Assembly (NCBI GenBank): GCA_049516875.1
Contig: JBEKSS010000001.1
Location: forward strand, 470,549-534,548
Length of the DNA stretch: 64,000 nt
Source: Candidatus Bathyarchaeia archaeon
GTDB lineage: Archaea > Thermoproteota > Bathyarchaeia > Bathyarchaeales > Bathycorpusculaceae
Direction of reading: 5' to 3'
Shown here: one piece after another, positions 21,554 to 63,850 of the stretch
Numbering within the stretch: position 1 is the first letter of the stretch
Layout: each line of letters opens with the position of its first letter
The notes under the pieces: generated by a model
Database searches by the model: none
Seen by the model: the letters and a program-made list of their open reading frames with translations, nothing else
Told to the model about the DNA's origin: nothing
Made by a program: the position numbers and the translations under genes

Positions 21554-21797
21554 GCCATTTTGGATCCACATCTGACAGACGCTTCTGTACGCTGAGCTGG
21601 GTTCAGCATGCAACCCTTTTCTTTCCAAGGAAAGCGCGCTAATCAATAGGCCAATATCTTTCCGACCTCTTAGTTCTTTGAAGCCTCTCTATTGCAGAAT
21701 CGGTACTCAACTTTATCATCTATAGCGCGCGCAAATAGCGTGGGTCGGTAGGCCCGTGTGGGTTACATAAACATAAATTGGTGTTTCAGCATAAATT

Positions 21798-23087
21798 ATG
21801 ATTATGAACGTGGAAAAACTGAGATGTTTTATTCCCATTGGGGGTCAGGCTAAGAGGTTAATGCCCTTGACACACGACATATCAAAGCCTTGTGTCAGGT
21901 TCTTGAACAGGCCATTAATCGAATTCTCAGTGGCAACTTTGGCTGAACAAGGCGTGAGGAACTTCATCTTCGGAGAGTATGGTTATACCAACTATTCGAA
22001 CCTTTTCGATCAGTACGGAGAAGGGGTTGGGTTCTCAGCAAAGTACAAGATCGAGCCGAGAGTGCACATCAGACATCAACCCAACCTGGATGACTTGGGA
22101 AGCGCCGATTCTTACAGGCTGAACGTGGAATACTATGATGTTCGGGATCCAGTCCTTGTCGTACAGGGAGATAACCTCTTCAACATCGATCTGAACGACT
22201 TTGCCAAGAGGCACGAAGAAAAAGGGGCAATGATGACCATTGCCTTAACGAAGGTGAAAAACGTATCAGAATATGGAATTGCCGAGTTTGACAAAGATAT
22301 GAAGATTAAGAGGTTTGTCGAGAAGCCTTCAGAGGAGAAAGCACCAAGCAATTTTGCCAACGCTGGCATCTACCTGCTTTCACCAGAAGTCAGAAAGATA
22401 GTTGAAAGCGAAGAAGTAAAGAAGATAAGGGAGGAGAGGAGGAGACTCGATTTCGGTTTTGATTTCATTCCGTACCTGGTGGACAAAGGATTTCCAGTCT
22501 ATGGATATGAATTAGAAGTGTGGTACGACGTTGGGAGTCCAGAAAGCTATCTAAAGGCAATGCATGACTTTCTCTATGGAAAGTTAAACATGAGAGTCTT
22601 GGAAGAAAGAATTTTGCCGAACAGAAACGTTTGGGTTCAAGGATACAGCGAAGAGTCTGTCAGAAGGCGGGAAGACATAGTCAGAAAACATAAAGAAAAC
22701 AAGTTGTCCATTGATGGTGCTGCTCTAATTGGCAGACACACAACAATAGGTGATTATTCAAAGATCTCAGATTCAAGCATTGACAATTTCTGCATACTCG
22801 GTGAACACGTGAACGTGACAGGCTCAGCAATTATGGATGCTGCAAAGATTGGAGATTACGCCAATTTGTCAGACAGCATTCTAGGCAGGAAAGTTGTCGT
22901 AGAATCGACTCGTGAAAACCCTACTTGTATTGAATCAACTTCTGTGATAGGCAACGCTGTCTACATCAGGAAAGGGTGTATGCTCATAAGAACTAAGGTC
23001 AACCCAAGTTTAACGATTCCACCAGGCATGATATATAAAGATAAGTTCCTGCAGAACTACGAAGACGTTGTTAGATTAGCATCTTAG
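21798..23087 (+). CDS. Sugar-phosphate nucleotidyltransferase (NDP-sugar synthase) with C-terminal left-handed beta-helix
   Basis: PIGGQAKRLMPLT..SKP, QGD, FVEKP, WYDVG; hexapeptide repeats. Confidence 0.9.
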   Translation: MIMNVEKLRCFIPIGGQAKRLMPLTHDISKPCVRFLNRPLIEFSVATLAEQGVRNFIFGEYGYTNYSNLFDQYGEGVGFSAKYKIEPRVHIRHQPNLDDLGSADSYRLNVEYYDVRDPVLVVQGDNLFNIDLNDFAKRHEEKGAMMTIALTKVKNVSEYGIAEFDKDMKIKRFVEKPSEEKAPSNFANAGIYLLSPEVRKIVESEEVKKIREERRRLDFGFDFIPYLVDKGFPVYGYELEVWYDVGSPESYLKAMHDFLYGKLNMRVLEERILPNRNVWVQGYSEESVRRREDIVRKHKENKLSIDGAALIGRHTTIGDYSKISDSSIDNFCILGEHVNVTGSAIMDAAKIGDYANLSDSILGRKVVVESTRENPTCIESTSVIGNAVYIRKGCMLIRTKVNPSLTIPPGMIYKDKFLQNYEDVVRLAS

Positions 23088-25627
23088 CGCGCGCTACGTC
23101 GTCTTCGGTAGACTACAACTGTCATTACCGTAACTGTCATTACCGTTGCTATTACGAATAACGGCGGAATGATGGATGAACATTCAGGAGTCACATGAGT
23201 CAGATGCTCTTTTGTCAGATTGAGATATTGATCGCCATATTCGATGCTCGGCTCTATCTCTGTGCCTTCGTGCCATTCGTTGAACGAAGTGATTGCGTAA
23301 CCATCAGGGTGAGAGGCGTTTGCGATCAGCCAGAACGAATTGTAGCAGACTCCGTTTCGCCTATCAACAACACTCTCGAGTGCAGCTGGGCTGTAATCGC
23401 TTGCGACAACGTTGTTGAAGCCCGGCACGACTGTTGCTATGAAGGTCTTGTCGTAGGAGTGTGCCAATTCACAGGCTTGATGGTACAGGTCATACACCTT
23501 CAGAGTGTTGTTTGAAATGGGGTTGTACACGTGTATTCCGTCAATGCAATTTGAGAAGTAATCAATAAAGTCTTCAACCTTGCCTTCGTATCCCCCAAGA
23601 TCCATTATCACGTAGGGGCCCGCGCCACTTCCCCTCATCTCACGCACGACCTCGCTCCAGCCGTTATCAAAAAAAGCGTCTGGACTGACTGTTTCGCCTC
23701 GGGAGTTGTTGACGAAGAAATAGTCAAGAGCCGCCCATTCACTGCTCCAGTTCACAAGGCCGCCGTTGTAGGACTCAGCCCTTATGTAAACGTCCTGCCC
23801 AGCATAACGTGTTATGTTGAAGCTCAGATCATGCCAACCGTCCGTGAAATTCACTATCTGATCATAAAGAGTGTCATTGCACGATGTATCCAATCCTATC
23901 TTTATCCGGACACCCACGTCTGACCATTTTTCGGAATCGTTTCTTATGTCTGACAGGCCGACGTTCAACCAGTACTCCTCATCAGGCTGTAGATGAATAG
24001 GACTGGCGCTTTCAACGTATCCCGGTGTTGTCTTGAACGGTTGAAACGGGATAATCCCGAGTCTTGGCGGTTTTCGAACTTCTTCAGCCAGCAACCACTG
24101 CGCTGAAGCACTTTCATTCTTGGCGGGGTTAGAGTCATTGCCGATGCTATCAGTGCATGCATGCCAAATCCACGCTTGCGGGTTCAATTCGTCGCGTGCC
24201 CGTTGGTACACGAAGATGACTGGCCGAGCGTCTACCCTGTACCATGAACTGCTGTTACCGTATTCGTTCAGAAGATAGGTGAGGTCGTTGACTGTCTGGT
24301 TTATGCTTGTAGTGTTTTCGATGTAGAAGGTGAAGTTGAAATCGTCCCGGTCGCATACGTTCCTTATGTGCTTCGAAGCGTTGTCTGTGAAGTCGTTTAT
24401 CCCCCACCAAGAGATAACGAAACAGTCAATGCCAGCGTTTTTGGCCCAATTAACATGTTTGTCAATGACTGTTTCATTGTTGGAATCGTACACGCCCAGC
24501 AGAGGGTAATCTGTCGCAGCTATGTCTCTTCTTCCATCTGTAATGTTGTCAGGGTTGTGGTTGGCGTCATTCCAATGTAGCCAATAGCCCGAAAGACCAG
24601 GTGTTCCGTACCATGGATAATAAAAAGCGAAAGTGCACAGCTTCACCTTTGGAGGCGTGAGAAGAGCGATTATCACGATGGACGTTGTTTCCGTGTTCGC
24701 GTCGCCCTCCAACGCACCGTTCGCAAGGTAATTTGTTACTATTCCCCCGTCGGATTCTCTCTGTTGCGCGTAGATTCTGTCGACGAGCTCAGATAAGAAG
24801 GCAGGGCTTTGTCCAAGCACCTTTGACGTGTAAAGTAGCAATGCAAGCTTGTATGTATCGTATGTTCCACTGAATGCTTTGTCTTGGACACCTTTGCTGG
24901 TTTCATTCCACATTTTCGTGGCGTTATTGTAGTAACCAAGCGCTCCTGAATCATTTCCTTGCCAAGGACATGAAAGCGCGGCGTAGAGAAGAAGATCCGC
25001 ATACTGATTCCAATCGGGCATAACCGTTCCATTACCCACGGTTGTTTTCAGAATATAATCACCATTGTACAGCGTACAGTCTGTTTCGGTTCTATAAGGC
25101 GGTGAGGCCACGTCGCCTATGACTGCTTCATGAACGTAGCTTCTGGGTAAGCCGTTCGAGTCCGTTGGCAAGTTGTAGTTGACGGCAAGCCCGGCAAGTT
25201 TAGCCCTGATTTTCTGTGCGGTCGCTTCTGCTTCAGCAGCATTCGAAAGGCCATACTCGTTTGCCATGCTCAAGGCTTTCCAAGCCCACAGATTATCGGA
25301 AACAAGCCAATACGTATTGGGAGCCACGTTTGGAGCCTCACGGCAAAGACCAAGGCTTCTGTCAAACTGCTTGTTCAAGAGGAAATCTGCGGCCTTCTCG
25401 ACAAAAAGGGTCTGATATGGCGCGGTCATCTGGGATTGAAGGGTTGATATCTGAGAATCGTTGCTGTTTGCTAGTGACGTGTAACCGACGCCCTCTAGGA
25501 TTAGTCCAATCAGAAGGACAATGCATAGCAAACCCATTCGAACGCCCGCATTTCCACGCGCGAGCTTCGCGACCTTTCCAAGCGCCCGTCTGACACTAGG
25601 CGAGTGATGCTGTGTAAAATGGCTCAT
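23084..25627 (-). CDS. Surface-anchored GH99-like glycoside hydrolase with N-terminal alpha/alpha domain and PEF-CTERM-like tail
   Basis: AFYYPWY, YPLLGVYDS, ISWWG, ITSFNEWHEGTEIEP; N-terminal TM; TPECS-TM-RRRR tail; start taken at MSHF. Confidence 0.8.
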   Translation of the reverse strand: MSHFTQHHSPSVRRALGKVAKLARGNAGVRMGLLCIVLLIGLILEGVGYTSLANSNDSQISTLQSQMTAPYQTLFVEKAADFLLNKQFDRSLGLCREAPNVAPNTYWLVSDNLWAWKALSMANEYGLSNAAEAEATAQKIRAKLAGLAVNYNLPTDSNGLPRSYVHEAVIGDVASPPYRTETDCTLYNGDYILKTTVGNGTVMPDWNQYADLLLYAALSCPWQGNDSGALGYYNNATKMWNETSKGVQDKAFSGTYDTYKLALLLYTSKVLGQSPAFLSELVDRIYAQQRESDGGIVTNYLANGALEGDANTETTSIVIIALLTPPKVKLCTFAFYYPWYGTPGLSGYWLHWNDANHNPDNITDGRRDIAATDYPLLGVYDSNNETVIDKHVNWAKNAGIDCFVISWWGINDFTDNASKHIRNVCDRDDFNFTFYIENTTSINQTVNDLTYLLNEYGNSSSWYRVDARPVIFVYQRARDELNPQAWIWHACTDSIGNDSNPAKNESASAQWLLAEEVRKPPRLGIIPFQPFKTTPGYVESASPIHLQPDEEYWLNVGLSDIRNDSEKWSDVGVRIKIGLDTSCNDTLYDQIVNFTDGWHDLSFNITRYAGQDVYIRAESYNGGLVNWSSEWAALDYFFVNNSRGETVSPDAFFDNGWSEVVREMRGSGAGPYVIMDLGGYEGKVEDFIDYFSNCIDGIHVYNPISNNTLKVYDLYHQACELAHSYDKTFIATVVPGFNNVVASDYSPAALESVVDRRNGVCYNSFWLIANASHPDGYAITSFNEWHEGTEIEPSIEYGDQYLNLTKEHLTHVTPECSSIIPPLFVIATVMTVTVMTVVVYRRRRSAR

Positions 25628-29185: not shown

Positions 29186-29449
29186 AATAAAAGCCTTCTT
29201 TTATCAAATTGAGTTTCTTTTCCCCGCGCTTTTATGCTTTTTGACTATTACTTACTCGCCTGCGAAGTCTTTAAAAGCGCGCGCGCTAGCCAATTCGACT
29301 TTAACCTGTGACTAGAAGACATTTCTATCAGTCTTTTAAGACAGTTTTTGGTTTTGCGGAAAGGCTAATTCTTGATACAGGACGCATCAGAAAAGTCTGC
29401 ATAATCTATAAAGACTGCCCAATGTATAGTAGTGTATCGGTGGTTATTC

Positions 29450-33699: not shown

Positions 33700-34782
33700 T
33701 CACTTCAGAATAATTCTCTTATTCTTGTATAGAATCTTGACTCCTTCTGCACGCGTTACGTGACCTATTTCTTCAGCCTGGGTGCCTGTTTTTTCCAGAA
33801 CGTCTATCGTCCTCTCGCCGTCCTTCTTGTCAACAATCAAAGCAAAGCCCCATCCCATGTTAAACGTCTTAAACATCTCCTCATCAGTTATCGTCCCACC
33901 CATGTCGGCTGCGGTATTCTGAATCAGACTGAATATCGGTTGGGGTTTGAAATTGTTGAACTCGAAACCTATGTCTCCTGAAAACTCTTTGAGCTTGTTG
34001 AACTTCATGTAAGCGTCGCCCGTCACGTGCACTGCAGCCTTGACCTCAATCTCCTCAGTGACCTTGAGGAAGGGCTTAACGTATATCGTGGTCGGTTCCA
34101 AAACCTCATCAACCACTTCCCTGTCCAAGCCCTCAGGAACCGCGTCAGCCTCGTACTTACCTCCCCACTGCTTGAACAGCACTCTCCTTACTAGGGATAC
34201 GCCGTTGCTGTGGACGCCCGAACTGCGCAAGCCCACAATGACGTCTCCAGGTCTCACTTTTCTGCCCGAAATGACCTTACCCTTAGGCACTACTCCTATA
34301 GAGGCAAACACCATGTCGAAGCCCTTGCCTTCCGTCAAACCTTTGATGAGTTCAGCAACGTCGCCGATTTCGCCACTTGGCACCACACACTCGGCTTCTG
34401 CCGCGCCCTTCACTATTCCCTTCATGAACTCAAAAATCAACACGGGATCCGACACCTGAGCGTGAATGTTGTCCGCCAAGGCAAGCGGCCGAGCCCCAGA
34501 ACGAATCACGTCGTTAACGGCCACTGCTACACCGTCGACCCCAATAGTGTCGAACCTGTTTGCCAGCTGAGCGACCAGTACTTTCGTGCCCACCCCCTCA
34601 ACCACCAAGTCCAGGTAGCAATCGCCAAAGGGAAAAATCCGCCCATAAGGAAGAACCACGACCTTGCCGTATTGGCTGAAACCATACGTTTTGTTCAGAA
34701 TACTCAACGTTTTCTTGGACTCAGCTCTCAGATTCCTGTCAACTCCAGCGCCAGCGTAAGTAAGCTTGCGACCCAACACCAA
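33700..34782 (-). CDS. purM: AIR synthase
   Basis: YAGAGVD, EGVGTK, SSGVHSNG, HVTG, TFNMG. Confidence 0.95.
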   Translation of the reverse strand: MVLGRKLTYAGAGVDRNLRAESKKTLSILNKTYGFSQYGKVVVLPYGRIFPFGDCYLDLVVEGVGTKVLVAQLANRFDTIGVDGVAVAVNDVIRSGARPLALADNIHAQVSDPVLIFEFMKGIVKGAAEAECVVPSGEIGDVAELIKGLTEGKGFDMVFASIGVVPKGKVISGRKVRPGDVIVGLRSSGVHSNGVSLVRRVLFKQWGGKYEADAVPEGLDREVVDEVLEPTTIYVKPFLKVTEEIEVKAAVHVTGDAYMKFNKLKEFSGDIGFEFNNFKPQPIFSLIQNTAADMGGTITDEEMFKTFNMGWGFALIVDKKDGERTIDVLEKTGTQAEEIGHVTRAEGVKILYKNKRIILK

Positions 34783-34808
34783 CCCCGGTGATCTAGTTAA
34801 TCGCTCTA

Positions 34809-34817
34809 CTTATAAAA
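34809..34817 (-). promoter_or_regulatory. TATA box of the purM operon
   Basis: TTTTATAAG ~27-35 nt upstream of the purM start; conserved in the duplicate copy at ~38497. Confidence 0.55.
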
Positions 34818-34833
34818 TCGCACACGATGCATT

Positions 34834-35817
34834 CTAGCGCGCTCTGCGTTCTGAGTTCGAAATGATTTTCTTTCTGAAGAGCACGACCACTAACAAGACT
34901 GTCAGCATGAGCATTGAGGGTATTCGAATGTTTGGGAATTCGGGGATGGCGCTTGGGCTATCCAAGAATGTTACTGTCGTACCGTCTGTGGTTGCTACTA
35001 TCGTTCCAGATCTGTAAGTGCCGTATACTGTGACGTTGTAGTTGAGGAGTCTCTGTACTGTCTCTGGGGCTGGATGTCCATAGGAATTGTTTAGACCACA
35101 GCTTATGACTGCGTATGTTGGTCGAACGCTATTGAGAAATGCGTCGGTTGTGCCGTACGCGCTTCCATGATGACCGACCTTCAAGACGTCGCCGCGCAGG
35201 TCCAATCCAGCGGTGAGCATGCTTTGCTCAGCTCCTGAGCAAGCGTCACCTTCCAAAAGAAAGGCTGTTTGACCCGTCCGAAGCTTCATCACGACGCTGT
35301 TTTCGTTTTGATCTGCAAATTCAAGGGGCTGAACCGGGTTAAAAACGGTCAGGTTCACCGTTGAGGTTAGAGTGTAGACTTGTCCTCGCTGAGCTGCAAC
35401 GAGCGTATGGCTTCTGGCGAGCGTCATGAACTGAGTGTACGCTTGCGTGGTATCTGATTCGTTGTTGATGATTACTTCGTCTACCTGAATGGCTGAGCTC
35501 AAAACGCTGATTAGCCCGCCTATGTGATCCTCATGCATGTGAGTAGCCACCATCAGACTTAGATGCGTCACATTCAGTCCGTCAAGATAGCCTAGCAGTA
35601 CACTTCCCGCCGACTTTGGTCCGCCATCTATTAATACTTCCACGCCATGTGCGTCAACGAGAATCGAATCGCCCTGACCAACGTCGAAAAAACGCACAGT
35701 GACCTTCAAATCGGACGCTGCAGCCACCGAGCAGCCAATCTTCAAACTTGAAAATGTCAACGCGAGAGCGACGAAAACAAACGAAGAGAATAATGAAAAA
35801 ACACGATTTTCTCGCAC
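34834..35817 (-). CDS. Secreted ComEC/Rec2-like metallo-beta-lactamase-fold hydrolase with PEF-CTERM
   Basis: DVGQGD, THMHEDHIGG, KVGHHGS, YGHP; signal peptide; IPEFP-TM-RKK. Confidence 0.9.
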   Translation of the reverse strand: MRENRVFSLFSSFVFVALALTFSSLKIGCSVAAASDLKVTVRFFDVGQGDSILVDAHGVEVLIDGGPKSAGSVLLGYLDGLNVTHLSLMVATHMHEDHIGGLISVLSSAIQVDEVIINNESDTTQAYTQFMTLARSHTLVAAQRGQVYTLTSTVNLTVFNPVQPLEFADQNENSVVMKLRTGQTAFLLEGDACSGAEQSMLTAGLDLRGDVLKVGHHGSAYGTTDAFLNSVRPTYAVISCGLNNSYGHPAPETVQRLLNYNVTVYGTYRSGTIVATTDGTTVTFLDSPSAIPEFPNIRIPSMLMLTVLLVVVLFRKKIISNSERRAR

Positions 35818-36002
35818 GGAATTCCTTTTAGCATCGCAGACGTAAAAGATTTACGAAAATCCCCTTGCTTTTGCCCGTGCTGACGGGGACGCCTCCCTCA
35901 AACACGAGTTCCAGACTTCAGTGCAAGGTCTTTTTCATAAGGTTTATATGATTTCATGACTTAGTATTCTTGGAGCCACTGGGGAGGAGCAGTGGGAGTG
36001 TA

Positions 36003-38330
36003 ATGAGAACCGAAGTTCTGCCTAGTCTACTCTTACTGTCCGTGTTGCTGTGCTCAGCCTTTGCTGGGATCAGACCTGTTCACGCCGATTTCGACGTCCG
36101 CAATGCCGCCTATTATGACAGAGTCAATAGTGTTCTTGGACTCACGTCGACGCAGCAGGACATGCTCCGCCAATACGGTTTTGTAACAGTATCCATTCCG
36201 AACATGACAACATTCGAGAACTTCTACGGCAACCTAGTCTGGCAGCATGACTTGCCCGTGATCGTCACCACCGATTCCTTCCTTCAACTGTTCCACGTAG
36301 TGTTTGATTGCTCCTTGAGAATCTTGGAGAAACAGGAGTTCTACCCGATGCTGCTAAACCTAACGTCGTACGCATTCAACGCTTCGCTGGCCGATTATGC
36401 GGCGATATCGCATGACGGTTCGCAGAAGCAGTGGGCCATCGGCAACGCCACGGTCTACTTTGCAGTTGCGTTGTCCCTGCTTACAAACACGGCTGTCAGC
36501 GTGCCGCTTGAGCTGTCAGACGATGTGGCTTTCTACCTAGAGAACATATGGTCTAGCAACTTGCAGTTCGTGCCAGCCGCATTTTGGAATGGGATATTAG
36601 TTCAGTATGATTTCACTCAGTTCACGGTGAGAGGTCACTATCTGGGCGACCCGCAACTGGAAAGCTACTTCCGCGCCATGATGTGGTACGGCCAGTTCCC
36701 CGTCTTCATCCCGCGGATAAATGAAAGCTATCTTTGGAGCGCTCCCCACATAGACGATGTCGCCATCGTCTACATGCGTGACTTGATGCATCGGAACCAA
36801 CAGTACTTCAGCGAATGGGAGCTTGTGTACAACGTTACAAACGCCCTAGTGGGAAAGAGCGACTCCATCAATCTTCTCAGTCTCGAAACGGCACTTCACA
36901 GAGTGTTCGGAGACAATGAGGAATATCTCGACGTAGTGTTGCAACCTAACGGGACAACGGCCTTGAGAAACGAATTAGGGAAGCCTGAATACGCCCAAAG
37001 GATTCTGTCCCAAGCCGTGCAGCAGCCGACTCCGGGAGCAATCCTTCAAGCTTATCCACTTGTTTTTCAGTTCATGGGTCAACGGTTCGTTCCCGACTCC
37101 TACATCTTCCAAAACCTGTGCTGGGACAAGGTAGGCTACAATTCAACAGGAGACCGAAGGATACTCCCCAAGGGCTTGGACGTCTTCGCCGTCGTAGGAT
37201 CTCAACGCGCGTCCCAACTGCTCACCACAGACTTCGACTACGCTGGCTTTGAAAGAAACCTGACCTCGTTGAAACAGGAATTCGACAGCTTGAACGAAGA
37301 GAACTGGACCTACAGCTCCTACACTTCCTGGATCTACGCGTTGCAGAGCCTCGTCAACGTTAATTATACCAACGATTATCCTGATTTCATGAAGAACATG
37401 GCGTGGCAGGACGAAAAACTCAACACCGCCCTCGGCAGCTGGGCTCAGCTGAGACACGACACTATCCTGTATGCGAAGCAGACCTACGTACCCGTATATA
37501 TTTGCAGCTACCCCGAAGCGTTCCTTGAGCCAAACCCAACTTTCTATTCCAGAATGCAGATCTTAGCCAACCAGACGCTCGAAGCCGTGAACATCCTCAA
37601 GCCTGAAATGATTGACAGCACGATCTTGAGCTCATTGAACACGCTGATTGACGCATCAGGGCGTTTCGTAACGATTTCCGAAGAAGAGTTGGCGGGACAC
37701 GCTCTGACGCCTGATGAGATTTCATTCCTGAAAAGCCTAGTGCAGACTTACGACAGTGGTTGCGGCGGCCCAACCTACAGCGGCTGGTATGTTGACGTGC
37801 TTATGAGCATAACTCTTGCCGCAAACTACACTGCCGATTTGAATTCACGCCTAATTGCAGACGTTGCAACATTTCCGCCTGGAGACATGGACTACCCTCC
37901 TCAGATTCTTCATGTCGGCACGGGCGACGTCAACGCACTCGTCGCACTTTTCCCCTTGCCCAACGGCACTCTAGTAACTGGCGTGGGACCAGTATTCTCC
38001 TACTACGAGTTTCCACTGATAGGCACCAAGCGGTTGAACGACGAAGAATGGAGTGAAATGCTCAACTGGGACAACCAAACCGCCTACCTGCCAGCATGGC
38101 TAAAAGATGTGCACGCCCTAGCCGACCCCATCACCCCTGAGTACCCTAATCCAATTATGCTGACCGCTGCTATGGTGATTATTCTAATAAGTGTGGCTAT
38201 AACGAGACGCGCCAAAATAAACAAGCGCGCGCTAACTTTCCCCAAACCCTCGCACAAACCCCGCCCCTCCAACCTCGCCATCTCCTCCCCCCGCAGAACC
38301 GACACTCAAAAACCCCGGAAAATCGAGTAA
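36003..38330 (+). CDS. DUF3160 family secreted protein with PEF-CTERM-like tail
   Basis: FTVRGHY..YFRAMMW, GQRFVPDS, WAQLRHDTILYAKQ, GPVFSYYEF; TPEYP-TM. Confidence 0.85.
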   Translation: MRTEVLPSLLLLSVLLCSAFAGIRPVHADFDVRNAAYYDRVNSVLGLTSTQQDMLRQYGFVTVSIPNMTTFENFYGNLVWQHDLPVIVTTDSFLQLFHVVFDCSLRILEKQEFYPMLLNLTSYAFNASLADYAAISHDGSQKQWAIGNATVYFAVALSLLTNTAVSVPLELSDDVAFYLENIWSSNLQFVPAAFWNGILVQYDFTQFTVRGHYLGDPQLESYFRAMMWYGQFPVFIPRINESYLWSAPHIDDVAIVYMRDLMHRNQQYFSEWELVYNVTNALVGKSDSINLLSLETALHRVFGDNEEYLDVVLQPNGTTALRNELGKPEYAQRILSQAVQQPTPGAILQAYPLVFQFMGQRFVPDSYIFQNLCWDKVGYNSTGDRRILPKGLDVFAVVGSQRASQLLTTDFDYAGFERNLTSLKQEFDSLNEENWTYSSYTSWIYALQSLVNVNYTNDYPDFMKNMAWQDEKLNTALGSWAQLRHDTILYAKQTYVPVYICSYPEAFLEPNPTFYSRMQILANQTLEAVNILKPEMIDSTILSSLNTLIDASGRFVTISEEELAGHALTPDEISFLKSLVQTYDSGCGGPTYSGWYVDVLMSITLAANYTADLNSRLIADVATFPPGDMDYPPQILHVGTGDVNALVALFPLPNGTLVTGVGPVFSYYEFPLIGTKRLNDEEWSEMLNWDNQTAYLPAWLKDVHALADPITPEYPNPIMLTAAMVIILISVAITRRAKINKRALTFPKPSHKPRPSNLAISSPRRTDTQKPRKIE

Positions 38331-38430
38331 ACAGAAGCCTCAAACCAACATGTTTCAACATTGTTTTGACACTCAAAGAAATCGTGGACTGAGCACTCAA
38401 ACACAAGGACTCAAAACTCAACATCGGCCC
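38301..38430 (+). repeat. ~130-150 bp dispersed repeat, copy 1
   Basis: Shares TTTTGACACTCAAAGAAATC and GAGYACTCAAACACAAG with the copies at 50849 and 56565. Confidence 0.9.
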
Positions 38431-38440
38431 GCGCGCGGCT

Positions 38441-38514
38441 AGCACGAGTAAGCTTGCGACCCAAGACTAATCCCGCTAATGTAGTTAGCTGTTTAACTTA
38501 TAAAATGGAACACG
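38441..38514 (-). repeat. Diverged duplicate of purM 5' end and promoter
   Basis: Gapless 57/74 identity to 34753-34826, including 18 identical bp AGTAAGCTTGCGACCCAA. Confidence 0.85.
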
Positions 38515-38678
38515 CGCGCAAAAACATTTGTAACAAATCAACATTCTTCCAACATACCTGAAACTCTCTTCTCTGACTCTCAGATTGTAACAAAAGCGCC
38601 GTCAAAAAAACTTTTGGAACGGTTTGTAACCGTTAGCGAAGCTCGACTTTAGCGCGCGAATTGTATTTCAACAGGAAT

Positions 38679-39546: not shown

Positions 39547-40216
39547 GCTTATTCACCCTGGTGACTTGAACCTAACTGCCAATTATGGAGGTCATTGGTT
39601 CTTAACGTTTTTGGTGAGTGAATAGTTGAAAGTTTAATTAATGAAAAGGCGAACGCTTTCAGGAATAGTCCATAGTCTATCCACGAAAAGAAGCTCATTC
39701 CTCCGAGAATTGGTTTCTGTTACAGAAGCTCAAAAATCCCCAAAAATGATGTTGAGCACATTGTAATTCTGAGAATTGCCGAAAAACTGGGATTGTGACG
39801 GATTGTAACAGGTATTTTGTAGCAAAATGATGGGAAAAACCGTCTTTTCTCACTTAGCGCGCGCTATGATAATAGGAGATGAACTGAAAGTGGAAACATG
39901 AGAGGCTTGGAGTGGAGATGTCTCCTGCATACCCGATTTCTTTTTGAGTAAAGAAGTGTCTAGGACATGTTGAAACGAGTGTGACAGGTGTTCGTTTTGG
40001 CTGACATAAAACTGACCGAGAAGGCACGGAAAGACTGGAATCGTTTGGCTGGAGAGTATCAGGCGTTCCGGTCCGGTAGACGGAATTTAAGAACTTTGCT
40101 ACCTTCAAAGTTGGACTAAGACAAAGATATTCAGAAAGCGCGCGCCTTAATAGACAATTTAAGGCATGAGAAAGCTTTTATTCTTAATAGGACGACACAA
40201 AACAGAGGAAAAGAAA

Positions 40217-40849: not shown

Positions 40850-41045
40850 CAGCAACTCGTCTATCGTCAACACTGGTCTAAAGTAAAAGAATAATCTATT
40901 TTTCTTTTTTAAAAATTAAGCAAATTGCTTATTTTTAGCGAACGATGTTTGCATCTCCTTGCCTGCGCGCGCTAGACTTGTAGAGCTGTTAAAGGAAGCG
41001 TACGGTCTAGAGAACACAGAGACGCCTTAAACGATTTAGCGTGGG

Positions 41046-43129: not shown

Positions 43130-43167
43130 GAAAATAGATTTGCTTGTTTGGGAGGGATAAAACTTTG

Positions 43168-44018: not shown

Positions 44019-44150
44019 TTTTGTGTTATCTTGTCAGCTTTCGCGCGCGCAAAACCTTCCGCAAGATCGAACATCGGCACTTACTGTTGAGCATGATGCG
44101 TATGAAAAGCCTTTTCAGCGACTTATCTAAACTTTGTATTGGTTTCCATC

Positions 44151-47100
44151 ATGTCGAACGCGTCGGGTGCAGAGTCAATTCTCGATCAGGCGTTTCAACG
44201 GGAAAAAAGTTTTGACTGGTTGGGGGCGGTCGAGTGCTACAGGAAAGCTCGGGGTATTGTTTCTATTCACGATTTCTTGAGGGTTGGCGACATTCACGAG
44301 AGTGGGGGCTACGCACTTCACCGGGCTGCCATGCAAGCTGAGGGCCCTAACGAATTCCGGGAAAGGATGCGTCAAGCAGTTGCAGAGTGGGAAAAGGCAA
44401 AGGAGTGTTACGGAAGCCTGGGCAAGATTGAGAAAACACGAGCTGTTCGCTGTGACGCCATGATCGCCTATTCGAGTTCTTGGCTCACGTCAGAGACATC
44501 TGAAAAGAAAAGACTGCTGGATGAAAGCTGGAGACTGACGAAGGAATGCTTAACCGCCTTCGACAAGGCTGAGAACCCTAGGGAATATGGAAGAACGTAC
44601 AACCGCCTTTTGGCAGGGGCTCTTTACGGGTTCTTGCTCGAATGGGACTATCACGCTCGCCTAAAGAGGATGAAGGAAGCGCTCGAACATGGAGAACGGG
44701 CGATATCTCTTCTCTCCGCCTCTGGCGACCCTGAGCTTGTGAAAACCTACATTGGAACAGGACTCTGTGAAGCCGCGTTCACTTACTATTTCAGGGAATA
44801 TCCTGAGAAGGAAGAGGGACACAAGAAGACCAGAGCCCACTGGGAGAAGGCGAAAGAGCTATCTAAAGAAACAGCGGCCGTCGAACTGCTGTCTGACATT
44901 GCACTAACGGGTTATGCTCCCGGAGATGAAGGCTCAGACGAGGCTTTGAAGACTTTTGAGGAAGCACTGGACTATGGCCGAAAGACGAAGGACAGACTGA
45001 TAACCGGCTCTGCACTTGCCATGTTGGCCTATCACACTTGGTGGAAAAAGAGCGACTATCCAGAGGAGACCATCAGACTCATGGAAAAAGGTTTGCAGTA
45101 TGCAGAAGAAGCTAAGAATCATTTCTCTCAGATATCTTTCACCAGCGTGAGCAAAGGCGTGGCTTGGGCTGAATTTCCCTACCCAGAGTACTATAGACGA
45201 GCGGCTTCTATCGAAACTGACATGGACAAAAGGCGGCAACTGATAAGAAAAGCCGTTGAAGCTGCGCCGGAAGCACTGAAAAGGGCCCTCGCCTCGGGAT
45301 TTGAAGAGAACGCTGTCTATGCACACCATATGTCCCGCACTGTCCTCACAGAATTTGCTGAAGCAGAGGAAGACGCCGAGGAAAAAAAGAGCATTCTTGA
45401 AAAGACTCTGCAGGAAGCCAACGAATGTGTGAAGCTCGTTGAGCAGGTTGAGACTCACAACTACTGGGATCGAGGAATAATGCAAGGAACCAGAAGTCGC
45501 GTAGAGTATGACCTTGCCCTCCTGGAGAGGGACCCTGAAAAGAAAAAGAACGTGCTTCAAGACGCAGTGCTGGATATGGAAGCGGCATTGAAACTCTGCA
45601 GGAAAGGCTTGGTGCTCTATGAGGGGAAAGCTCCACACTCGATGCTTATTCTAGTGGCAGCAGGGACATCTATGATTGGAGATACTTTGGATCGTCTTTA
45701 CAAACTCACCAATGACAAGGAGTACCTGAAGAAAGCCGCCGTAGCCCTCGCTGAGGCAGCCGAAACATTCCAGCAGATTGACATGAAGAATCTGGTCGCC
45801 GAGTGCCTCTGGAAAGCCGCACGAGTCTACGACGATTCTGGCGAGTACATGAAGGCAGCTCAAAACTTCGATCTTGCCTCAGACAACTACAAAAATGCGG
45901 CAGAAAAGGTTCCCCAACTCAAAGAACTCTATACAGACCACTCGCTCTACATGCAAGCTTGGAGCGAAATCGAGAAAGCAAGACATCACCACGTGAGACA
46001 AGAGTACGGCTTGGCAAAAGAACACTTCGAAAAGGCTGCGGACATGCACAAATCGCTCAAGCAATGGAATTATCTGGAGCCGAACTACGCAGCTTGGGCT
46101 CACATCGAAAACGCAGAGGAACTCAGTCGAAAAGACCAGTGCGAGGAGAGCATCAGAGCATTTGAACAGGCAGCCGATCTTCTCAAGGAAACCAAGAAGT
46201 CCATTCAAACACGGTTGCCAAAGATTGAAAAACCCGATGAGAAAGAAATGGCAGTCGACGTTCTCAACGGAACCGACTTGAGACTCGAATACTGCACGGC
46301 CCGAGTCGCCCTGGAAGAAGCAAGAATCCTTGACAAGAAAGGCGACCACTACTCCAGCTCAGAGCATTACTGCCAAGCAGCCGAGACTTTCGGAAGAATG
46401 GTTGCTGCACTGGAGTCTGAGCAGGAGCGGAACGAAGTCAGATTCATGATCAGTCTTTCTCAAGCCTGGCAGAAAATGACAATGGCCGAAGCTGAGGCTT
46501 CACCCAAACTGTATGCTGAGGCGTCCGAACTCTTCGAGAAAGCCAAGGACTTCTGTCCAAACGAGAAAACAAAAATGCTGGTGCTTGGACACAGCCACTT
46601 CTGCAAGGCTCTTGAGGCGGGAACAACATTCGTGGACACTAGGGATCTGGCAGCACACGACACCGCGTTGCAGCAATTGGCAAGCGCCTCCAACTACTAT
46701 GTGAGAGCAGATTTTGAAAACGCTTCGGAATACGCTAAGGCCACGAGGCTCCTCTTCGACGCGTTTGCCTACATGGACAAGGCCGAAAAAGAAAACGAAC
46801 CGGAAAAGAAAACCAGATTGTACGCAATGGCTGAGAAAATCTTGCAAACATCGGCTGGCTCGTACACGAAGGCCGAGCACCCGGAGAAGAGGGAACAAGT
46901 GCTGAGACTGCTGGAGAAGACGATGGAAGAACGCGAGCTGGCCACATCTCTCGCGGAGGTCTTGCACGCCCCTTCGATTGTTTCCACGACGGCAACTTTC
47001 ACGGCTCCCACGCCGACGCGTGAAGAGGCAGTGGGCTCAGAAAGGTTCGAGCACGCCGACATACAAGCCAACGTGATAATCCGACCGAAAGAACTGAAAG

Positions 47101-47447
47101 TTGGCGAAAACCTCGACTTGGAATTGGAAATAGTCAACGCCGGAAGGGGTCCAGCGCTGCTCATGAAGGTAACAGAACTCATTCTCCAAGACTTTGACTT
47201 GGTGGAGAGGCCTGAAAAATACCGTGTAGAAGACAGCTACGTCAACATGAAAGGAAAACGACTTGACCCATTGAAGACTGAAGAACTGAGAATCAGCCTA
47301 AGACCCAGAACCCAAGGAGTCTTCGAGCTGAAGCCAAGAGTGCTCTATCTCGACGAGAACGGCAAGTATAGGGTTCACGAGCTTGAACCTGTGAGCGTGA
47401 TTGTGAAGGAACTAGGAATCAAGGGCTGGCTCAAAGGGGAAAAATGA
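44151..47447 (+). CDS. Large TPR-like alpha-solenoid protein with C-terminal Ig-like domain
   Basis: Repeated A..Y.KA helical motifs; C-terminal LEIVNAG..LDPLK..G.FELKP beta domain. Confidence 0.85.
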   Translation: MSNASGAESILDQAFQREKSFDWLGAVECYRKARGIVSIHDFLRVGDIHESGGYALHRAAMQAEGPNEFRERMRQAVAEWEKAKECYGSLGKIEKTRAVRCDAMIAYSSSWLTSETSEKKRLLDESWRLTKECLTAFDKAENPREYGRTYNRLLAGALYGFLLEWDYHARLKRMKEALEHGERAISLLSASGDPELVKTYIGTGLCEAAFTYYFREYPEKEEGHKKTRAHWEKAKELSKETAAVELLSDIALTGYAPGDEGSDEALKTFEEALDYGRKTKDRLITGSALAMLAYHTWWKKSDYPEETIRLMEKGLQYAEEAKNHFSQISFTSVSKGVAWAEFPYPEYYRRAASIETDMDKRRQLIRKAVEAAPEALKRALASGFEENAVYAHHMSRTVLTEFAEAEEDAEEKKSILEKTLQEANECVKLVEQVETHNYWDRGIMQGTRSRVEYDLALLERDPEKKKNVLQDAVLDMEAALKLCRKGLVLYEGKAPHSMLILVAAGTSMIGDTLDRLYKLTNDKEYLKKAAVALAEAAETFQQIDMKNLVAECLWKAARVYDDSGEYMKAAQNFDLASDNYKNAAEKVPQLKELYTDHSLYMQAWSEIEKARHHHVRQEYGLAKEHFEKAADMHKSLKQWNYLEPNYAAWAHIENAEELSRKDQCEESIRAFEQAADLLKETKKSIQTRLPKIEKPDEKEMAVDVLNGTDLRLEYCTARVALEEARILDKKGDHYSSSEHYCQAAETFGRMVAALESEQERNEVRFMISLSQAWQKMTMAEAEASPKLYAEASELFEKAKDFCPNEKTKMLVLGHSHFCKALEAGTTFVDTRDLAAHDTALQQLASASNYYVRADFENASEYAKATRLLFDAFAYMDKAEKENEPEKKTRLYAMAEKILQTSAGSYTKAEHPEKREQVLRLLEKTMEERELATSLAEVLHAPSIVSTTATFTAPTPTREEAVGSERFEHADIQANVIIRPKELKVGENLDLELEIVNAGRGPALLMKVTELILQDFDLVERPEKYRVEDSYVNMKGKRLDPLKTEELRISLRPRTQGVFELKPRVLYLDENGKYRVHELEPVSVIVKELGIKGWLKGEK

Positions 47448-47593
47448 ATTACTAACTCGCGCGCGAACCTTTTCTGCCCTTGGCGATCGATTGAGCACAC
47501 TGGTTTTCCTGAGTTTTGCATATCGAAACCCCTGACTGAAAAGCACGATTGAACTTTCAATTCCATGCGTAACGGGCAAGCAGCAATTCTCGC

Positions 47594-48007: not shown

Positions 48008-48360
48008 CTTTCTCACCTCCACAAAAGTGTCAATGCTTATCACATTTAACACTTTCCAATCTTCCCGAAGTCCCATGCAGAGCAAAAACCATAACTTTGA
48101 TATCATTTGCCAAAGCTTCCTTAACCAAGACTGAACACAGGAAATCTGTGTGCGCTAGCTCTGCGTCGTAGTGTCGTTATACCGCGCTGAGCTTTCGTCG
48201 CGGTAAACGCGAACATTCCATGGTTGAGCCAGAAAATGAAATCGCTTCCAGATAGGCAAAGCGTGCACTTTCCACCGTTCTAACTTCTGGAACGGAACTG
48301 TACTAACGCTTAGCATAATATGGCATGGTGTCTTTGTACCTTAAGCAGGTGACTAACTCG

Positions 48361-50259
48361 ATGGAAAAACAAATCAAAAGAAAAGCCATTCTCTACGGAA
48401 TTGCGGCAATCCTTCTTGCCTCAACCTTTGGCGCAGTCCTCTACAACTACGGAGTTATCCAGACGATACTGAATCCCGCTGCTCCCCCAGTCCCGGTCGC
48501 ACATTCTTCTTTTCTGGCCACTTTCTCCTCGGCTGAAGCGCTGAAGAGCTTCTTGGAAACCAACTCGCAAACGCAGGGGCCGTTTTCACTTTATGGACCT
48601 GCAGACCTTAAGGTGTTCGGCTCCCCCAGCGGACCTCTCTTACCCGGCTCGATCAATGCTTTTAGTGTGACTTTGAATCCCCTGGACGAAAGTTACCAGC
48701 ATTCAGCAACGAACATTCAGGTCGCAGGAGTTGACGAAGCAGACACGGTGAAAACAGACGACAACGGCTACATGTACGTTCTGTCAAACGACACCGTCTA
48801 TATACTAACCGCCTACCCGCCAACACAAGCCCGAGTGCTCGCCAAGATCAAGTTCACCGACATGTATCCCATTGGAATCTTCGTCAGCGGCGAAAGACTG
48901 GCTGTACTGGGATCGCAATACAGTTATACCACCCTCATGTTTCCACTTTACAACAGATTCTACGTCGCCGACATCGAAACCTACTTGAGGCTCTATGATA
49001 TTCATGACAGAAGCAATCCCGTCCTCATCAAAGACCTTGTCTTGACCGGTAGCTACTTCAACTCAAGAATGATCGGCGATTACGTGTACTTTGTCGCGAG
49101 CAAACCAGCTTACACGGTTAACGACACGATCTTTCTGCCAGAAATCGTCATGAACGGAAGAGCCACGGAGATAGCTCCCACGGATATCCGCTACTTCAAC
49201 GGAACGGACGAATACTACCAATACACGACGTTTGTCGCAATGAACATCCAGAACACGACAGAAGCACCGACGTACCTGACAACTCTGCTCGGAGGGACGA
49301 GCAACATGTACGTTTCCCAAGAGAACATGTACGTGACATTCCAAGACGGGTACTGGGGTGGAAACACAACAATCTATCGCATACACTTGCAAGCTAGCAA
49401 CATGACCGTCGAAGCCAGCGGCAAAATTCCAGGACAAGAACGCAACCAGTATTCAATGGATGAATACGGCGACTACTTCCGAATACAAACCCAAACTTGG
49501 TCTGACGGAGTCAGCAAGACAAACGTGTACGTGCTCGACATGAACCTCAGCATCGTGGGAAATCTCTCGAACATCGCCGTCGGAGAGAACTTCCACTCCG
49601 CCCGTTTCATGGGCAACAGATGCTATCTCGTAACCTTCCAGAACACCGACCCGTTGTTCGTAATCAACCTTACAGACCCGACTTCACCGACGATTCTTGG
49701 CAATCTGACGATACCCGGATACTCAGACTACCTTCATCCATACGACGAGACTCACCTCATCGGCGTGGGCAAGAACACAGTCGAAGCAGAAGAAGGAAAC
49801 TTCGCGTGGTATCAGGGAATAAAAATATCCCTCTTCGACGTAAGCAACGTAACCAACCCCGTGCAAGAAGCGAGCTACGTAATCGGCGACAGAGGCTCAG
49901 ACACACCAGTTCTAACGGATCCCAAGGCGTTCCTTTTCGACAAATCCAGAAACCTTCTCGTAATCCCAGTCATGGTGGCAAAAATAGACGAAAGCAAATA
50001 TCCCAGCCCGGTTCCATCCTCCGCTTACGGAGACCCAGTGTGGCAGGGTGCCTACGTGTTTGACATATCATTGTACCACGACCTGGTGTCGGAAGGCAAC
50101 ATCACCCACTTGGACAACGGCGCGAGCATCAACGACCAAGGATACTGGGTCACGAGATCACTGTACATCGAAGATGTCTTATACACAGTCTCAGACCGAA
50201 TGATAAAGATGAACAGATTAGACGACATGAGCCTGATAGGCCAAGTCCCGCTCTCCTAA
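48361..50259 (+). CDS. Secreted beta-propeller domain protein (Beta_propel family)
   Basis: TNIQVAGVDEAD.VKTD, NQYSMDE, ARFMG..YLVTF..TDPLF, IPGYSDYLHP. Confidence 0.9.
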   Translation: MEKQIKRKAILYGIAAILLASTFGAVLYNYGVIQTILNPAAPPVPVAHSSFLATFSSAEALKSFLETNSQTQGPFSLYGPADLKVFGSPSGPLLPGSINAFSVTLNPLDESYQHSATNIQVAGVDEADTVKTDDNGYMYVLSNDTVYILTAYPPTQARVLAKIKFTDMYPIGIFVSGERLAVLGSQYSYTTLMFPLYNRFYVADIETYLRLYDIHDRSNPVLIKDLVLTGSYFNSRMIGDYVYFVASKPAYTVNDTIFLPEIVMNGRATEIAPTDIRYFNGTDEYYQYTTFVAMNIQNTTEAPTYLTTLLGGTSNMYVSQENMYVTFQDGYWGGNTTIYRIHLQASNMTVEASGKIPGQERNQYSMDEYGDYFRIQTQTWSDGVSKTNVYVLDMNLSIVGNLSNIAVGENFHSARFMGNRCYLVTFQNTDPLFVINLTDPTSPTILGNLTIPGYSDYLHPYDETHLIGVGKNTVEAEEGNFAWYQGIKISLFDVSNVTNPVQEASYVIGDRGSDTPVLTDPKAFLFDKSRNLLVIPVMVAKIDESKYPSPVPSSAYGDPVWQGAYVFDISLYHDLVSEGNITHLDNGASINDQGYWVTRSLYIEDVLYTVSDRMIKMNRLDDMSLIGQVPLS

Positions 50260-50349
50260 AACTCCCCATCTTTTTCTCCATTCGTCGATGAACACACGAA
50301 GCGCGCGCTATGAATGAGTTTAAGTGTTCTGAAATCGACGTGACAGGGT

Positions 50350-61608: not shown

Positions 61609-61751
61609 TTTGGCTTTTCACCTCCTTTGCAGATGCTGAACGCGTACACGACCAGCGCTTGATGGGACAGGCAAATGCAACTTCATGCATGCCAAGCACA
61701 GCAACAGACCTGGGCAAAATGACCGTTTCGAATCTTCACCTCTAGCGCGTG

Positions 61752-62024
61752 CTAAGCTACACGCCTCCCGCGATGAAAAAGCTTGACCTGCATGTCATAT
61801 CTTTGAACGTGGTCTATCGCTGACTCAGTGAAACCATTTATGGAATGTATTTCAGTGACGCCTTTCTTGCGTAGTTTTATCACCTCAGGTTTTGTCACTG
61901 GTCGTTGCATATGTTTGACTTCACCAACAGCGTCTCCTCGCAAGTAGTCGGGATTTCCTGATCCGCCAACATGATGCCCGCGATGTCTTCGCGCGGTTTC
62001 CCTTTCATAGCGTTTCCAACTCAT
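61752..62024 (-). CDS. Minimal PD-(D/E)xK nuclease (Hjc/Mrr-like)
   Basis: YERE..GSGNPDY..GEVK..GFTESA motifs. Confidence 0.6.
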   Translation of the reverse strand: MSWKRYERETARRHRGHHVGGSGNPDYLRGDAVGEVKHMQRPVTKPEVIKLRKKGVTEIHSINGFTESAIDHVQRYDMQVKLFHRGRRVA

Positions 62025-63183: not shown

Positions 63184-63795
63184 ATGAAAATATCTATCAT
63201 GTTGACCGGAACCGTTGATGACTGGCTTGAATTGGAGAAATTCCTAAGGAATAAAAAGATAACTTACTCGTCAATTATGTCGCAACTTTACCGTAACAGA
63301 CTTGCAATTGCTTGGGTGACAGACCAGTTTCAGAAAGGGGAATTTCCAAATCAGTCACTTCCAGAAGTCATGGAAAATGTCGACAAATTGCTGGAAAAAT
63401 CGGAGGGAATCAAGAATCAAGTCGACAGCATTGACATAGTGCTTGATGGTGAAATATCTGAGTCAGAAGTGCTTTCACTACTTGATTGGTATGAAAAACA
63501 GAAGGAAGGACGAGAGCGGAAATACACTATCCATCTGACCGGAAAATTGAGAAGAGCAATACATAAACTGCTAAGCATGTCATATGAAGAAGTTGCACCG
63601 TTTCGCGTCTCAATTCGTGGTGAAGATACTTTCATAACTCTCGTATGGGACATCTTAACAAGTTCTGAATTGAGTCAACAAGACAGGAAATGGTTAGTAA
63701 GCATTGCGCCGAAAAAAGGATTAACATTAGAAGAGAGTCTACGCTTCATGAAGTATTCTGATAAGAGCAAGTTTTTGCGTTCCAAACACTCTTGA
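63184..63795 (+). CDS. Hypothetical protein
   Basis: 203-aa ORF, no family recognised. Confidence 0.7.
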   Translation: MKISIMLTGTVDDWLELEKFLRNKKITYSSIMSQLYRNRLAIAWVTDQFQKGEFPNQSLPEVMENVDKLLEKSEGIKNQVDSIDIVLDGEISESEVLSLLDWYEKQKEGRERKYTIHLTGKLRRAIHKLLSMSYEEVAPFRVSIRGEDTFITLVWDILTSSELSQQDRKWLVSIAPKKGLTLEESLRFMKYSDKSKFLRSKHS

Positions 63796-63850
63796 AGCGC
63801 GCGCGAACTAGGGGAATTCATCACAAAATACATTGGTGCATACAGAAGTC

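Follow-up and report, generated by a model that had tools for sequence, protein, structure and literature searches.

Why does a short palindrome of alternating G and C, GCGCGCGC, recur between the genes of an uncultured soil archaeon of the Bathyarchaeia? The question is raised by a stretch of 64,000 nt, called the window in the following, which is C1:470549-534548 of the host assembly G000 (Bathyarchaeia; 2.43 Mb, 20 contigs, 47% G+C). A run is here an uninterrupted stretch of alternating GC, (GC)4 stands for GCGCGCGC, and the 12-mer WAGCGCGCGCTW was searched with up to two mismatches. The window contains 12 (GC)4 sites forming 11 runs, compared to 0.78 +/- 0.86 (largest 3) in 100 dinucleotide-preserving shuffles, and 20 sites of the 12-mer compared to 6.15, which confirms the over-representation noted in a first-pass annotation of this DNA. 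The (GC)4 palindromes are most likely the scars or the landing sites of one transposon family. To the more specific proposal, that they are excision scars consisting of two retained GCGC target copies and that they also mark the joints of shuffled segments, we assign about an even chance.

The palindrome is spread over the whole of G000, with 447 sites in 388 runs, or one per 5.4-6.3 kb, and its density in the window is the same. The sequence logo reads T-A-(GC)4-T-A and carries no information outside +/-2 nt. The run lengths are sharply distributed (8 nt, n=212; 9 nt, n=112; 10 nt, n=56; longer, n=8) and the phase is mostly G-first, with 151 cases of W(GC)4W and 13 of W(CG)4W. A longer repeat around the motif, such as a MITE (miniature inverted-repeat transposable element) or a repetitive extragenic palindromic (REP) sequence, was rejected because there is no signal past +/-2 nt, and the solo motif has no body between inverted repeats, as a MITE would have. 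No second motif was found near the runs (no 7-mer is enriched within 60 nt), and TTGTAAC, which occurs at some joints, is a local and not a general feature. An Rfam scan of the window returned a tRNA-Gly alone. The same runs are found at the same places in independent metagenome assemblies, namely in L013-L015 (99.7-100% identity) and in Logan contigs of four sequencing runs, and the possibility of adapters or contig joins, raised by the annotation, is thereby excluded.

As to its genomic placement, GCGCGCGC is the commonest intergenic 8-mer, counted 365 times per strand in the 0.50 Mb between genes and 78 times in the 1.93 Mb that are coding, a difference in density of ~19-fold. This genome-wide count, which had been proposed as a check, thus agrees with the expected intergenic preference. 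The gene calls on G000 are rough ones of our own (2227 genes, 79.5% of the DNA coding), which weakens the following run classes and, to that extent, the interpretation built on them:

intergenic, 314/388 runs (about 81%)
deep within called open reading frames (ORFs), 42/388
at most 12 nt from a stop, 10/388
at most 60 nt from a called start, 10/388
overlapping a 3' end, 4/388
at contig ends, 8/388

The 42 runs deep within ORFs are at odds with the earlier statement that all copies are intergenic or at gene ends.

The runs are, furthermore, unevenly distributed. They cluster along the genome (dispersion index 3.25 in 110 bins of 20 kb), and in 89 cases two adjacent spacers both carry a run, whereas permuting presence among spacers of the same length class gives 43.7 +/- 5.5. 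With G002-G004 as references, which belong to the same genus and are 72-89% identical in shared blocks, the window is syntenic at 1-1982, 3028-17380, 30163-34818 and in pieces of 51055-58920, and 0/11 of its runs lie inside this syntenic DNA. In C1:40001-120000, 17/18 runs are outside the syntenic blocks, which there cover 55% of the DNA, and in C1:40001-60000 all 12 runs are in a 12-kb island flanked by two syntenic stretches. The location in accessory DNA holds thus as a genome-wide tendency, in line with the suggested contrast between core and accessory genes. The annotation had also pointed out that the intergenic DNA of the first 21 kb contains no copy of the motif. There is indeed no (GC)4 run in 1-21632, but this is weak evidence on its own, since the ~4.1 kb of intergenic DNA there (rough calls) should hold 2.6 runs, which gives P(0) = 0.08.

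One explanation of such a motif is that it is a functional cis-element, which would bind a dimeric protein, form a boundary prone to Z-DNA or terminate transcription. A perfect intergenic palindrome would suit this function, and the runs are mildly enriched 10-80 nt after stops (107 vs 74) and 40-160 nt before starts (138 vs 106), while being depleted in the 40 nt preceding starts. However, their densities are alike in tandem (0.65 per kb), divergent (0.57 per kb, 75 runs) and convergent (0.79 per kb) spacers, which leaves no tie to 3' ends and speaks against a terminator. The stop codons that the motif had been said to supply or abut are likewise at chance level, with 8 run ends within 5 nt of a stop genome-wide and 6.4 when runs are placed at random within these spacers. 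Perfect cores in intergenic DNA number 369 and one-mismatch forms 53-79 per inner position, which is near N/7 = 53; the core shows no purifying selection and matches neutral birth and decay. The flanks are variable from the outset: 77/87 one-mismatch 12-mers differ at one of the four flank positions. The neutral decay of the core and its degeneration at the matching positions of relatives disfavour a boundary that forms Z-DNA or is bound by a protein, and the runs are almost missing from syntenic DNA, where regulation would be needed equally. We consider a cis-acting function to be improbable.

HIP1, another hyper-abundant palindromic octamer, is frequent inside genes. It is one of the highly iterated palindromes (HIPs) of cyanobacteria (PMC4390886, PMC5861425) and, like the present motif, specific to a lineage, and one could imagine that here too a methyltransferase or restriction system, with biased repair, enriches the octamer. 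The motif discussed here is ~19-fold denser in intergenic DNA, nearly confined to its non-syntenic part, and marks joints that such enrichment does not explain, so that we regard this origin as very unlikely.

A more informative lead is a multi-copy 187-nt element, met in the synteny comparison, whose inverted ends are TA followed by GCGCGCATGCnTGTTCCTAAAATGG. The ends of this family consist of (T)A-GCGCGC and then ATGCnTGTTCC or TGGCTTGTCCC (ATGC/TGGC). G000 has 48 of them in a strict search or 68 with a loose pattern, of which 37/48 begin with TAGCGCGC, with unrelated DNA outside, and 119 further ends were found in other metagenome-assembled genomes (MAGs). A 1.1-kb copy at G000:C7 ~36806-37909, with the inverted ends GCGCGCTGSCTTGTCYC, codes for a transposase of 307 aa. 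The element combines DDE_Tnp_1 and an N-terminal DUF772 (Pfam 52.7 and 35.7 bits, cut-offs 23) with terminal inverted repeats, as is characteristic of IS5. Its relatives in the species collection all come from Bathyarchaeota/Bathyarchaeia MAGs (80/80). MITEs of 130-500 nt with inverted ends of ~25-40 nt are present beside the solo motif, and larger forms with cargo also occur:

C1:76831-78805, a gene-carrying 2-kb element with the same ends
C15:16974-17906, an element with a CGGC-domain gene
G000:C7:96423-100709, a unit resembling a composite transposon, in which 3.8 kb of DNA with three genes of glycosyltransferase type are enclosed by one MITE of 324 nt and another of 165 nt

DDE elements make a target duplication. 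Among 39 full-length copies, all from other MAGs of Bathyarchaeia, GC tips of 6 + 6 nt predominate (12 copies) and the commonest sum of both tips is 12 nt (13/39), while a direct repeat outside the tips is seen as 2 nt in 6/39 (all TA) and as 3 nt in 0/39. With no direct repeat outside the GC run, the target duplication must lie inside it. Another option considered was a TA-duplicating element, which was dropped on account of these full-length copies without a direct repeat outside the run, and no IS630/mariner-type transposase (PF13358) was found in G000, at 97% completeness. The idea that the solo motif is a trimmed pair of inverted ends was also discarded, as GCGCGCATGCGCGC has 0 occurrences.

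We now turn to how such an element could give rise to the solo runs. The source would be a group of cut-and-paste transposons comprising the 1.1-kb IS5/IS1182-like insertion sequence (IS), the 130-500-nt MITEs and the gene-carrying derivatives. The element would insert at GCGC, with a preference for A-GCGC-T, and duplicate these 4 nt; in this case its own last two letters would be GC. Excision and blunt joining of the flanks would keep both copies, GCGC+GCGC giving GCGCGCGC between the old A...T flanks. The freed ends would all carry the palindromic GCGC and any two could be joined, and because this sequence is self-complementary on every freed end, a piece between two elements could be lost (leaving one scar), kept (with a scar on each side) or replaced. 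Scars would accumulate only where insertion is tolerated, that is, in intergenic DNA and flexible islands, and would then decay neutrally. Genes bracketed by scars and scars at strain-specific joints would follow from this. Excision scars would account for the length, the phase, the palindrome and the flanks, for the restriction to tolerant DNA, the neutral decay and the lineage distribution, and also for single as opposed to double runs at indels and for the run-bracketed gene units. Candidates for the joining are Ku and LigD. G000 encodes a complete end-joining operon at G000:C9:90981-94517, in which the genes of a LigD primase-polymerase of 285 aa, of Ku (269 aa) and of a ligase that is ATP-dependent and has a 3'-phosphoesterase domain are neighbours; Ku, LigD-Pol and LigD-ligase/PE all score above the NCBIfam cut-offs.

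The solo runs can be tied to the element in several ways. Among 41 genomes, which are related to each other and thus not independent, the motif AGCGCGCGCT has 98 copies in G000, 29-115 in four other members of the genus and 63 in G021 of another genus, compared to 0-11 in the remaining 35 genomes, where the reversed control gives 0-7. The element ends in the six motif-rich genomes number 58, 12, 41, 6, 96 and 56; G024 has 6 ends and 7 motifs, and elsewhere there are 0-2. In 30/41 genomes both counts are 0-2, and the Spearman rho between them is 0.59 over these non-independent kin. The flanks agree as well: at position -1, solo runs have A at 0.60, T at 0.23 and TA at 0.25, and the IS ends (80 loci) have A at 0.60, T at 0.21 and TA at 0.32. 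A specific transposon family is the likely cause, be it by leaving scars or by targeting the palindrome.

At one orthologous place, a MITE end in G004 (TAGCGCGC followed by ATGC) stands where G000 has TAGCGCGCGCTA, after an 89.6%-identical flank (309 nt, C12:3396-3704). The DNA beyond is unrelated, and the order of events could be that of either a scar or a landing site. In G000 the 309-nt unit, with a small ORF (~60 aa) that we take to be reminiscent of DUF1508/YegP, lies between two identical TTAGCGCGCGCTAA sequences (G000:C12:3388-3727). In G004 it is bordered by a (GC)3 run and, at its opposite end, by the MITE. None of the G004 MITEs has both of its 500-nt flanks adjacent in G000 (0/19), while 5/19 have them at different loci. 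A MITE in G002 (L091) adjoins a replaced segment, the other border of which is a run. In these comparisons, the element ends are synteny breaks.

The same structures can be read in the opposite direction, with (GC)4 as a pre-existing, preferred landing site into the centre of which the element inserts with a 4-nt duplication, rearrangements being due to breaks or recombination at the palindrome. The (GC)3 tips on both sides are the expected product of insertion into (GC)4, precise excision would restore (GC)4, and the place with a MITE in one genome and a solo run in the other fits equally well. REP palindromes of bacteria are documented as IS targets in the accessible part of PMC1525189. On the other hand, the origin of the 388 runs would be left unexplained, there is no sign of selection on the core, and the orthologous case would need a second event because its far flanks differ. 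It is also important that of 108 element ends 82 are exactly GCGCGC and that only 11/108 (10%) exceed 6 nt, three times rarer than the 31% predicted from the length spectrum of the solo runs for random landing in them (P = 3e-7). Taken together, we regard a landing site as the closest alternative, though rather unlikely.

Excision scars, to which we now return, should be found at joints between strains. Close-strain contigs (the L series, e.g. L016 and L024; 92-97% identity to the window) were compared, and Logan contigs from four peat, wetland and sediment sequencing runs were placed on window 34000-53999 (of the 24 sequencing runs listed, 0 are recorded as RNA); the evidence from sequencing runs X4-X8 concerns the window parts with contig cover. 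In strains that are 92-97% identical, homology stops exactly at runs. Considering all contig pairs of at least 88% identity, with the same ends shifted by 100-400 nt as controls, a (GC)>=3 run lies no more than 12 nt away, in one genome or the other, at 13 of the 65 unique block ends, compared to 1.3 (largest 6) in the controls, and a (GC)>=4 run is nearby in 8, compared to 0.4. The expectation that strain breakpoints fall in the motif is therefore borne out as an enrichment, but 52/65 block ends have no run nearby, many of them being gene ends or belonging to motif-free lineages (L039-L044). Two insertions are flanked by runs on both sides while the empty site has one run, namely 1538 nt in L024 and 3.75 kb in L035. 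The latter lies between GCGCGCGC and GCGCGCG, and L026, which is 97% identical, has a single GCGCGCG. Runs within homology blocks are, in turn, stable among close strains, with 14/15 comparisons (~six distinct sites) unchanged.

The copies of the motif in the window, including variants, are the following:

21723..21734, TAGCGCGCGCAA, upstream of gene 21798-23087, in DNA non-syntenic with G002-G004
23085..23096, a perfect TAGCGCGCGCTA between convergent genes
29275..29288, a (GC)5 copy within the segment 28512-30138 (98-100% to G004:C27)
34835..34846, the (GC)3 variant TAGCGCGCTCTG, 17 nt beyond the syntenic block 30163-34818; the block against L016/L018 ends 9 nt away
38223..38234, AAGCGCGCGCTA, exactly where L024 has the 1538-nt insertion with a run on both sides (TAGCGCGCGC ... 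TAGTGCGTGC)
38510..38520, ACACGCGCGCA, a block end vs L024, with 1.7 kb in the window and 92 nt in L024
38650..38661, TAGCGCGCGAAT, lost together with 38631-39813 in a strain of sequencing run X8
39855..39866, a perfect TAGCGCGCGCTA; an X8 joint stops 9 nt short of this copy
40136..40147, AAGCGCGCGCCT, in window-specific DNA
40963..40974, CTGCGCGCGCTA, an exact block end vs L024, with 62 nt in the window and 1116 nt in L024
43744..43755, TTGCGCGCGCGA, the same in L024, within a homology block
44041..44052, TCGCGCGCGCAA, the same in L024, within a homology block
50299..50310, AAGCGCGCGCTA, where homology with L024 and with G004:C27 ends; the same in L016
56455..56466, the variant TAGCGCATGCTT at the stop of a P-type ATPase gene in syntenic DNA, of uncertain membership
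61743..61754, the variant TAGCGCGTGCTA, with one core change
63795..63806, AAGCGCGCGCGA, following gene 63184-63795

Neighbouring copies do enclose a single gene, as the annotation had proposed, in the case of genes 21798-23087, 40166-40849, 44139-47447 and 48325-50259, but the interval 38650-39866, also named there, holds two ORFs. Its broader claim, that the motif bounds variable, cassette-like DNA, is supported by the 0/11 window runs in syntenic DNA, by the clustering of the runs and by homology ending at them.

Larger segments behave in a similar manner. In sequencing runs X6 and X7, a relative reaches 30-200 times the depth of the window strain. An abundant relative, represented by Logan contigs, matches the window only in parts, and the variable segments and shared units are:

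34759..38447, a 3.7-kb segment missing in the abundant relative, with an 18-nt direct repeat at its bounds and CGCGCGCG (38430-38437) 10 nt inside the right end
42294..47457, a 5.2-kb segment swapped in L016 and in the abundant relative for 593 nt with a run on each side
47458..47465, CGCGCGCG, the first base of which is the exact joint with L016 and an X7 contig, the run being common to both genomes
41045..42293, minus strand, a unit with a major facilitator superfamily (MFS) transporter gene (gene 41046-42182), the sole shared block in many unrelated contexts
48265..50295, plus strand, a beta-propeller gene unit, 87% to G004:C27, other same-genus copies being 66-68%

The shared block of the MFS unit is 1.2 kb long and 86-94% identical among otherwise unrelated contigs, where runs border it at L016 9877, L019 4910, L021 3584, L029 9832 and 11154, L023 11170 and L036 2950. 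In the comparison of gene 41046-42182 with G021 (87%), homology ends at the gene end and no run is present in G021. Homology of the beta-propeller unit is limited by a degenerate run on the left (48259-48270) and a run on the right, with run-like sequence in both genomes. Gene-sized units thus travel between contexts.

Some further observations concern these segments. A direct repeat of ~90 nt (CGTGTKCSATTTTATAAGT ... AGTAAGCTTGCGACCCAA), at window 34740-34826 and 38430-38512, borders the 3.7-kb variable segment and has related copies in L016 and L024. The segment 28512-30138 is 98-100% identical to G004:C27:24745-26583, while other genes shared by the two genomes are 72-89% identical, and represents a recent transfer. 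Its homologue in G004 adjoins the 87% beta-propeller copy, with GAGCGCGCAA at the joint. G004 has extra DNA at two places in this segment, 75 nt inserted in frame at window 29065/29066 and a further 136 nt at 28802/28803; no run is found at the 75-nt indel between the window and G004:C27.

As one possibility, the annotation had proposed an integron-analogous system of cassettes with an unseen recombinase, that is, site-specific recombination at the 12-bp palindrome. Single genes between runs, insertions with two runs as opposed to empty sites with one, and the many contexts of the MFS unit would all be expected from such a system, and the likeness to integron arrays of attC sites, including the CALIN arrays, extends to single promoterless-looking genes, a repeated site and strain-variable content. 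An attC site, however, is a folded structure of 60-140 bp with R and L boxes and needs the IntI integrase. The present site has 12 bp, no notable secondary structure and no orientation, and the genes lie on both strands. Its information ends 2 nt outside the core, the flanks are variable and no second motif is present within 60 nt, while a DDE transposase whose substrate bears the run is already available and fits better. Recombination of the integron kind is thus very improbable here.

A number of results weigh against excision scars and have to be discussed. First, a clean filled and empty pair, with GCGC before insertion and GCGCGCGC after excision, was not found for any of the 19 G004 or 2 G000 MITEs (0/19 and 0/2), and a clean empty site is also absent among internal paralogues and when all ends are compared with all compared DNA. 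The 4-nt duplication is thus an inference, neither a GCGC empty allele nor an excision being seen, and the structure alone is compatible with landing at GCGC or with landing at (GC)4 and a 4-nt duplication. Second, element ends lie within 300 nt of solo runs at a frequency of 0.18, compared to 0.20 for random intergenic positions, and G023, G018, G013 and G019 hold 5-11 motif copies with no matching ends, which landing in pre-existing palindromes would accommodate. Third, the absence of the window runs from syntenic DNA has by itself P = 0.14, the syntenic share being only 16% of the intergenic bases. Fourth, the transposase is under the cut-off of every NCBIfam IS model, the best scores being 80.6 bits for IS1182 (cut-off 270) and 65.5 bits for IS5_4 (cut-off 140). 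Fifth, excision of PIF/Harbinger elements, the eukaryotic relatives of IS5, is mostly precise according to the available part of PMC4561436. The 52 block ends without a run belong here as well.

The enzyme that would join the ends presents a similar difficulty. Ku is found in 6/41 genomes, and its distribution differs from that of the motif: the motif-rich G021 and G003 have no Ku, and G010, G020 and G040 are Ku-positive but have no motif. Ku was for this reason rejected as a marker of motif-rich genomes. The same distribution bears on a transposon-free origin, in which a polymerase or ligase adds or selects alternating GC during break repair and the self-complementary tails are joined. Runs at deletion, insertion and replacement joints, and the presence of Ku and of a LigD with a primase-polymerase domain, would be in line with this possibility. 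It does not explain, however, the sharp length, the G-first phase (151 vs 13), the A...T flanks common to the IS ends or the co-occurrence with the element, and Ku does not follow the motif. We therefore see break repair alone as improbable.

For the excision scars it is instructive to compare with known systems. The footprints of Tc1/mariner and Stowaway MITEs are likewise short palindromic remnants of target or terminal nucleotides, left after excision and rejoining. Such excision footprints exist, and non-homologous end joining repairs sites of this kind in yeast assays, as stated in the accessible text of PMC4561436. Here, in contrast, the host is an archaeon with ~390 runs per 2.4-Mb genome, the element is IS5/IS1182-like, the octamer is fixed, excision is proposed from sequence, and the scar coincides with joints of rearranged gene-sized segments. 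REP sequences and the composite elements built from them (BIME) are also abundant intergenic palindromes, associated with genome plasticity and serving as IS landing sites (PMC1525189, as far as its available part goes). They are imperfect hairpins of 20-40 bp, headed by GTAG or CGTC and accompanied by a RAYT transposase, according to the portions available of PMC3733652 and PMC2817692. Unlike these, the present motif is perfectly palindromic over 12 bp, forms no stem-loop and has flanks limited to T-A.

In the literature, no full-text match was obtained for GC-alternating intergenic palindromes or for the element in Bathyarchaeia, although supplements might list such repeats. The terms 'GCGCGC', 'archaea' and 'intergenic' are absent from the main text of the HIP paper PMC4390886, and 'Bathyarchae' and 'GCGCGC' from PMC12306157, which deals with REPs in bacteria and archaea, both as far as these texts were accessible. 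What is new is the link between the motif and a family of transposons whose ends bear this GC run.

IS elements of bacteria and archaea are usually thought to move without a trace, the broken donor being lost or copied from the sister chromosome. If the runs are scars, the hundreds of fixed copies per genome would constitute a readable record of transposition and rearrangement in abundant uncultured archaea of soils and sediments, and would explain how islands are assembled gene by gene without integrons. One can speculate that the transposon and end joining together form a general gene-shuffling device, in which freed segments, chromosomal or foreign, are joined in any order and orientation through the identical self-complementary GCGC ends left by each transposase cut, with the GCGCGCGC joints as its record; this is a tentative suggestion that we would not put at even chances. 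In the same tentative way, the cassette-like islands could be assembled free of integrons, with hundreds of prokaryotic excision scars per genome; we are inclined to doubt this, while considering it possible. In practical terms, runs and ends flag places where metagenome assemblies and bins from Bathyarchaeia are likely to be broken, and a transposon family is defined by the TA-GCGCGC ends whose very narrow target could make it worth testing as a tool. If instead the palindrome came first, its origin becomes a question of the HIP1 kind.

Finally, some features of the window that do not concern the runs should be mentioned. The sequence at 50904-50989 (bin 50675-51341) is a very high-copy repeat, with a summed depth of 3211 (X6) and 21908 (X7) compared to ~250 and 1600 alongside. 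Loose ends are numerous at 50928-50936 and at 50988, and one joint goes back 70. The over-represented intergenic words CGGATTGA, ATTGAGTA and TGACACTC occur in this repeat, which forms a second family of abundant intergenic repeats and is not related to the GC run. At the tRNA-Gly(CCC), 53859-53933, contigs of several sequencing runs break or return (a joint leads from 53938 to 53902, and 53880 and 53933 are loose ends), which resembles an integration or repeat site; in G004, too, a MITE lies directly at the CCA end of one tRNA gene (L190). The window also contains an alternating purine-pyrimidine tract, ACACACACGCGCACACACA, at 43232-43250, and 43191-43269 was skipped as a repeat in the contig placement.

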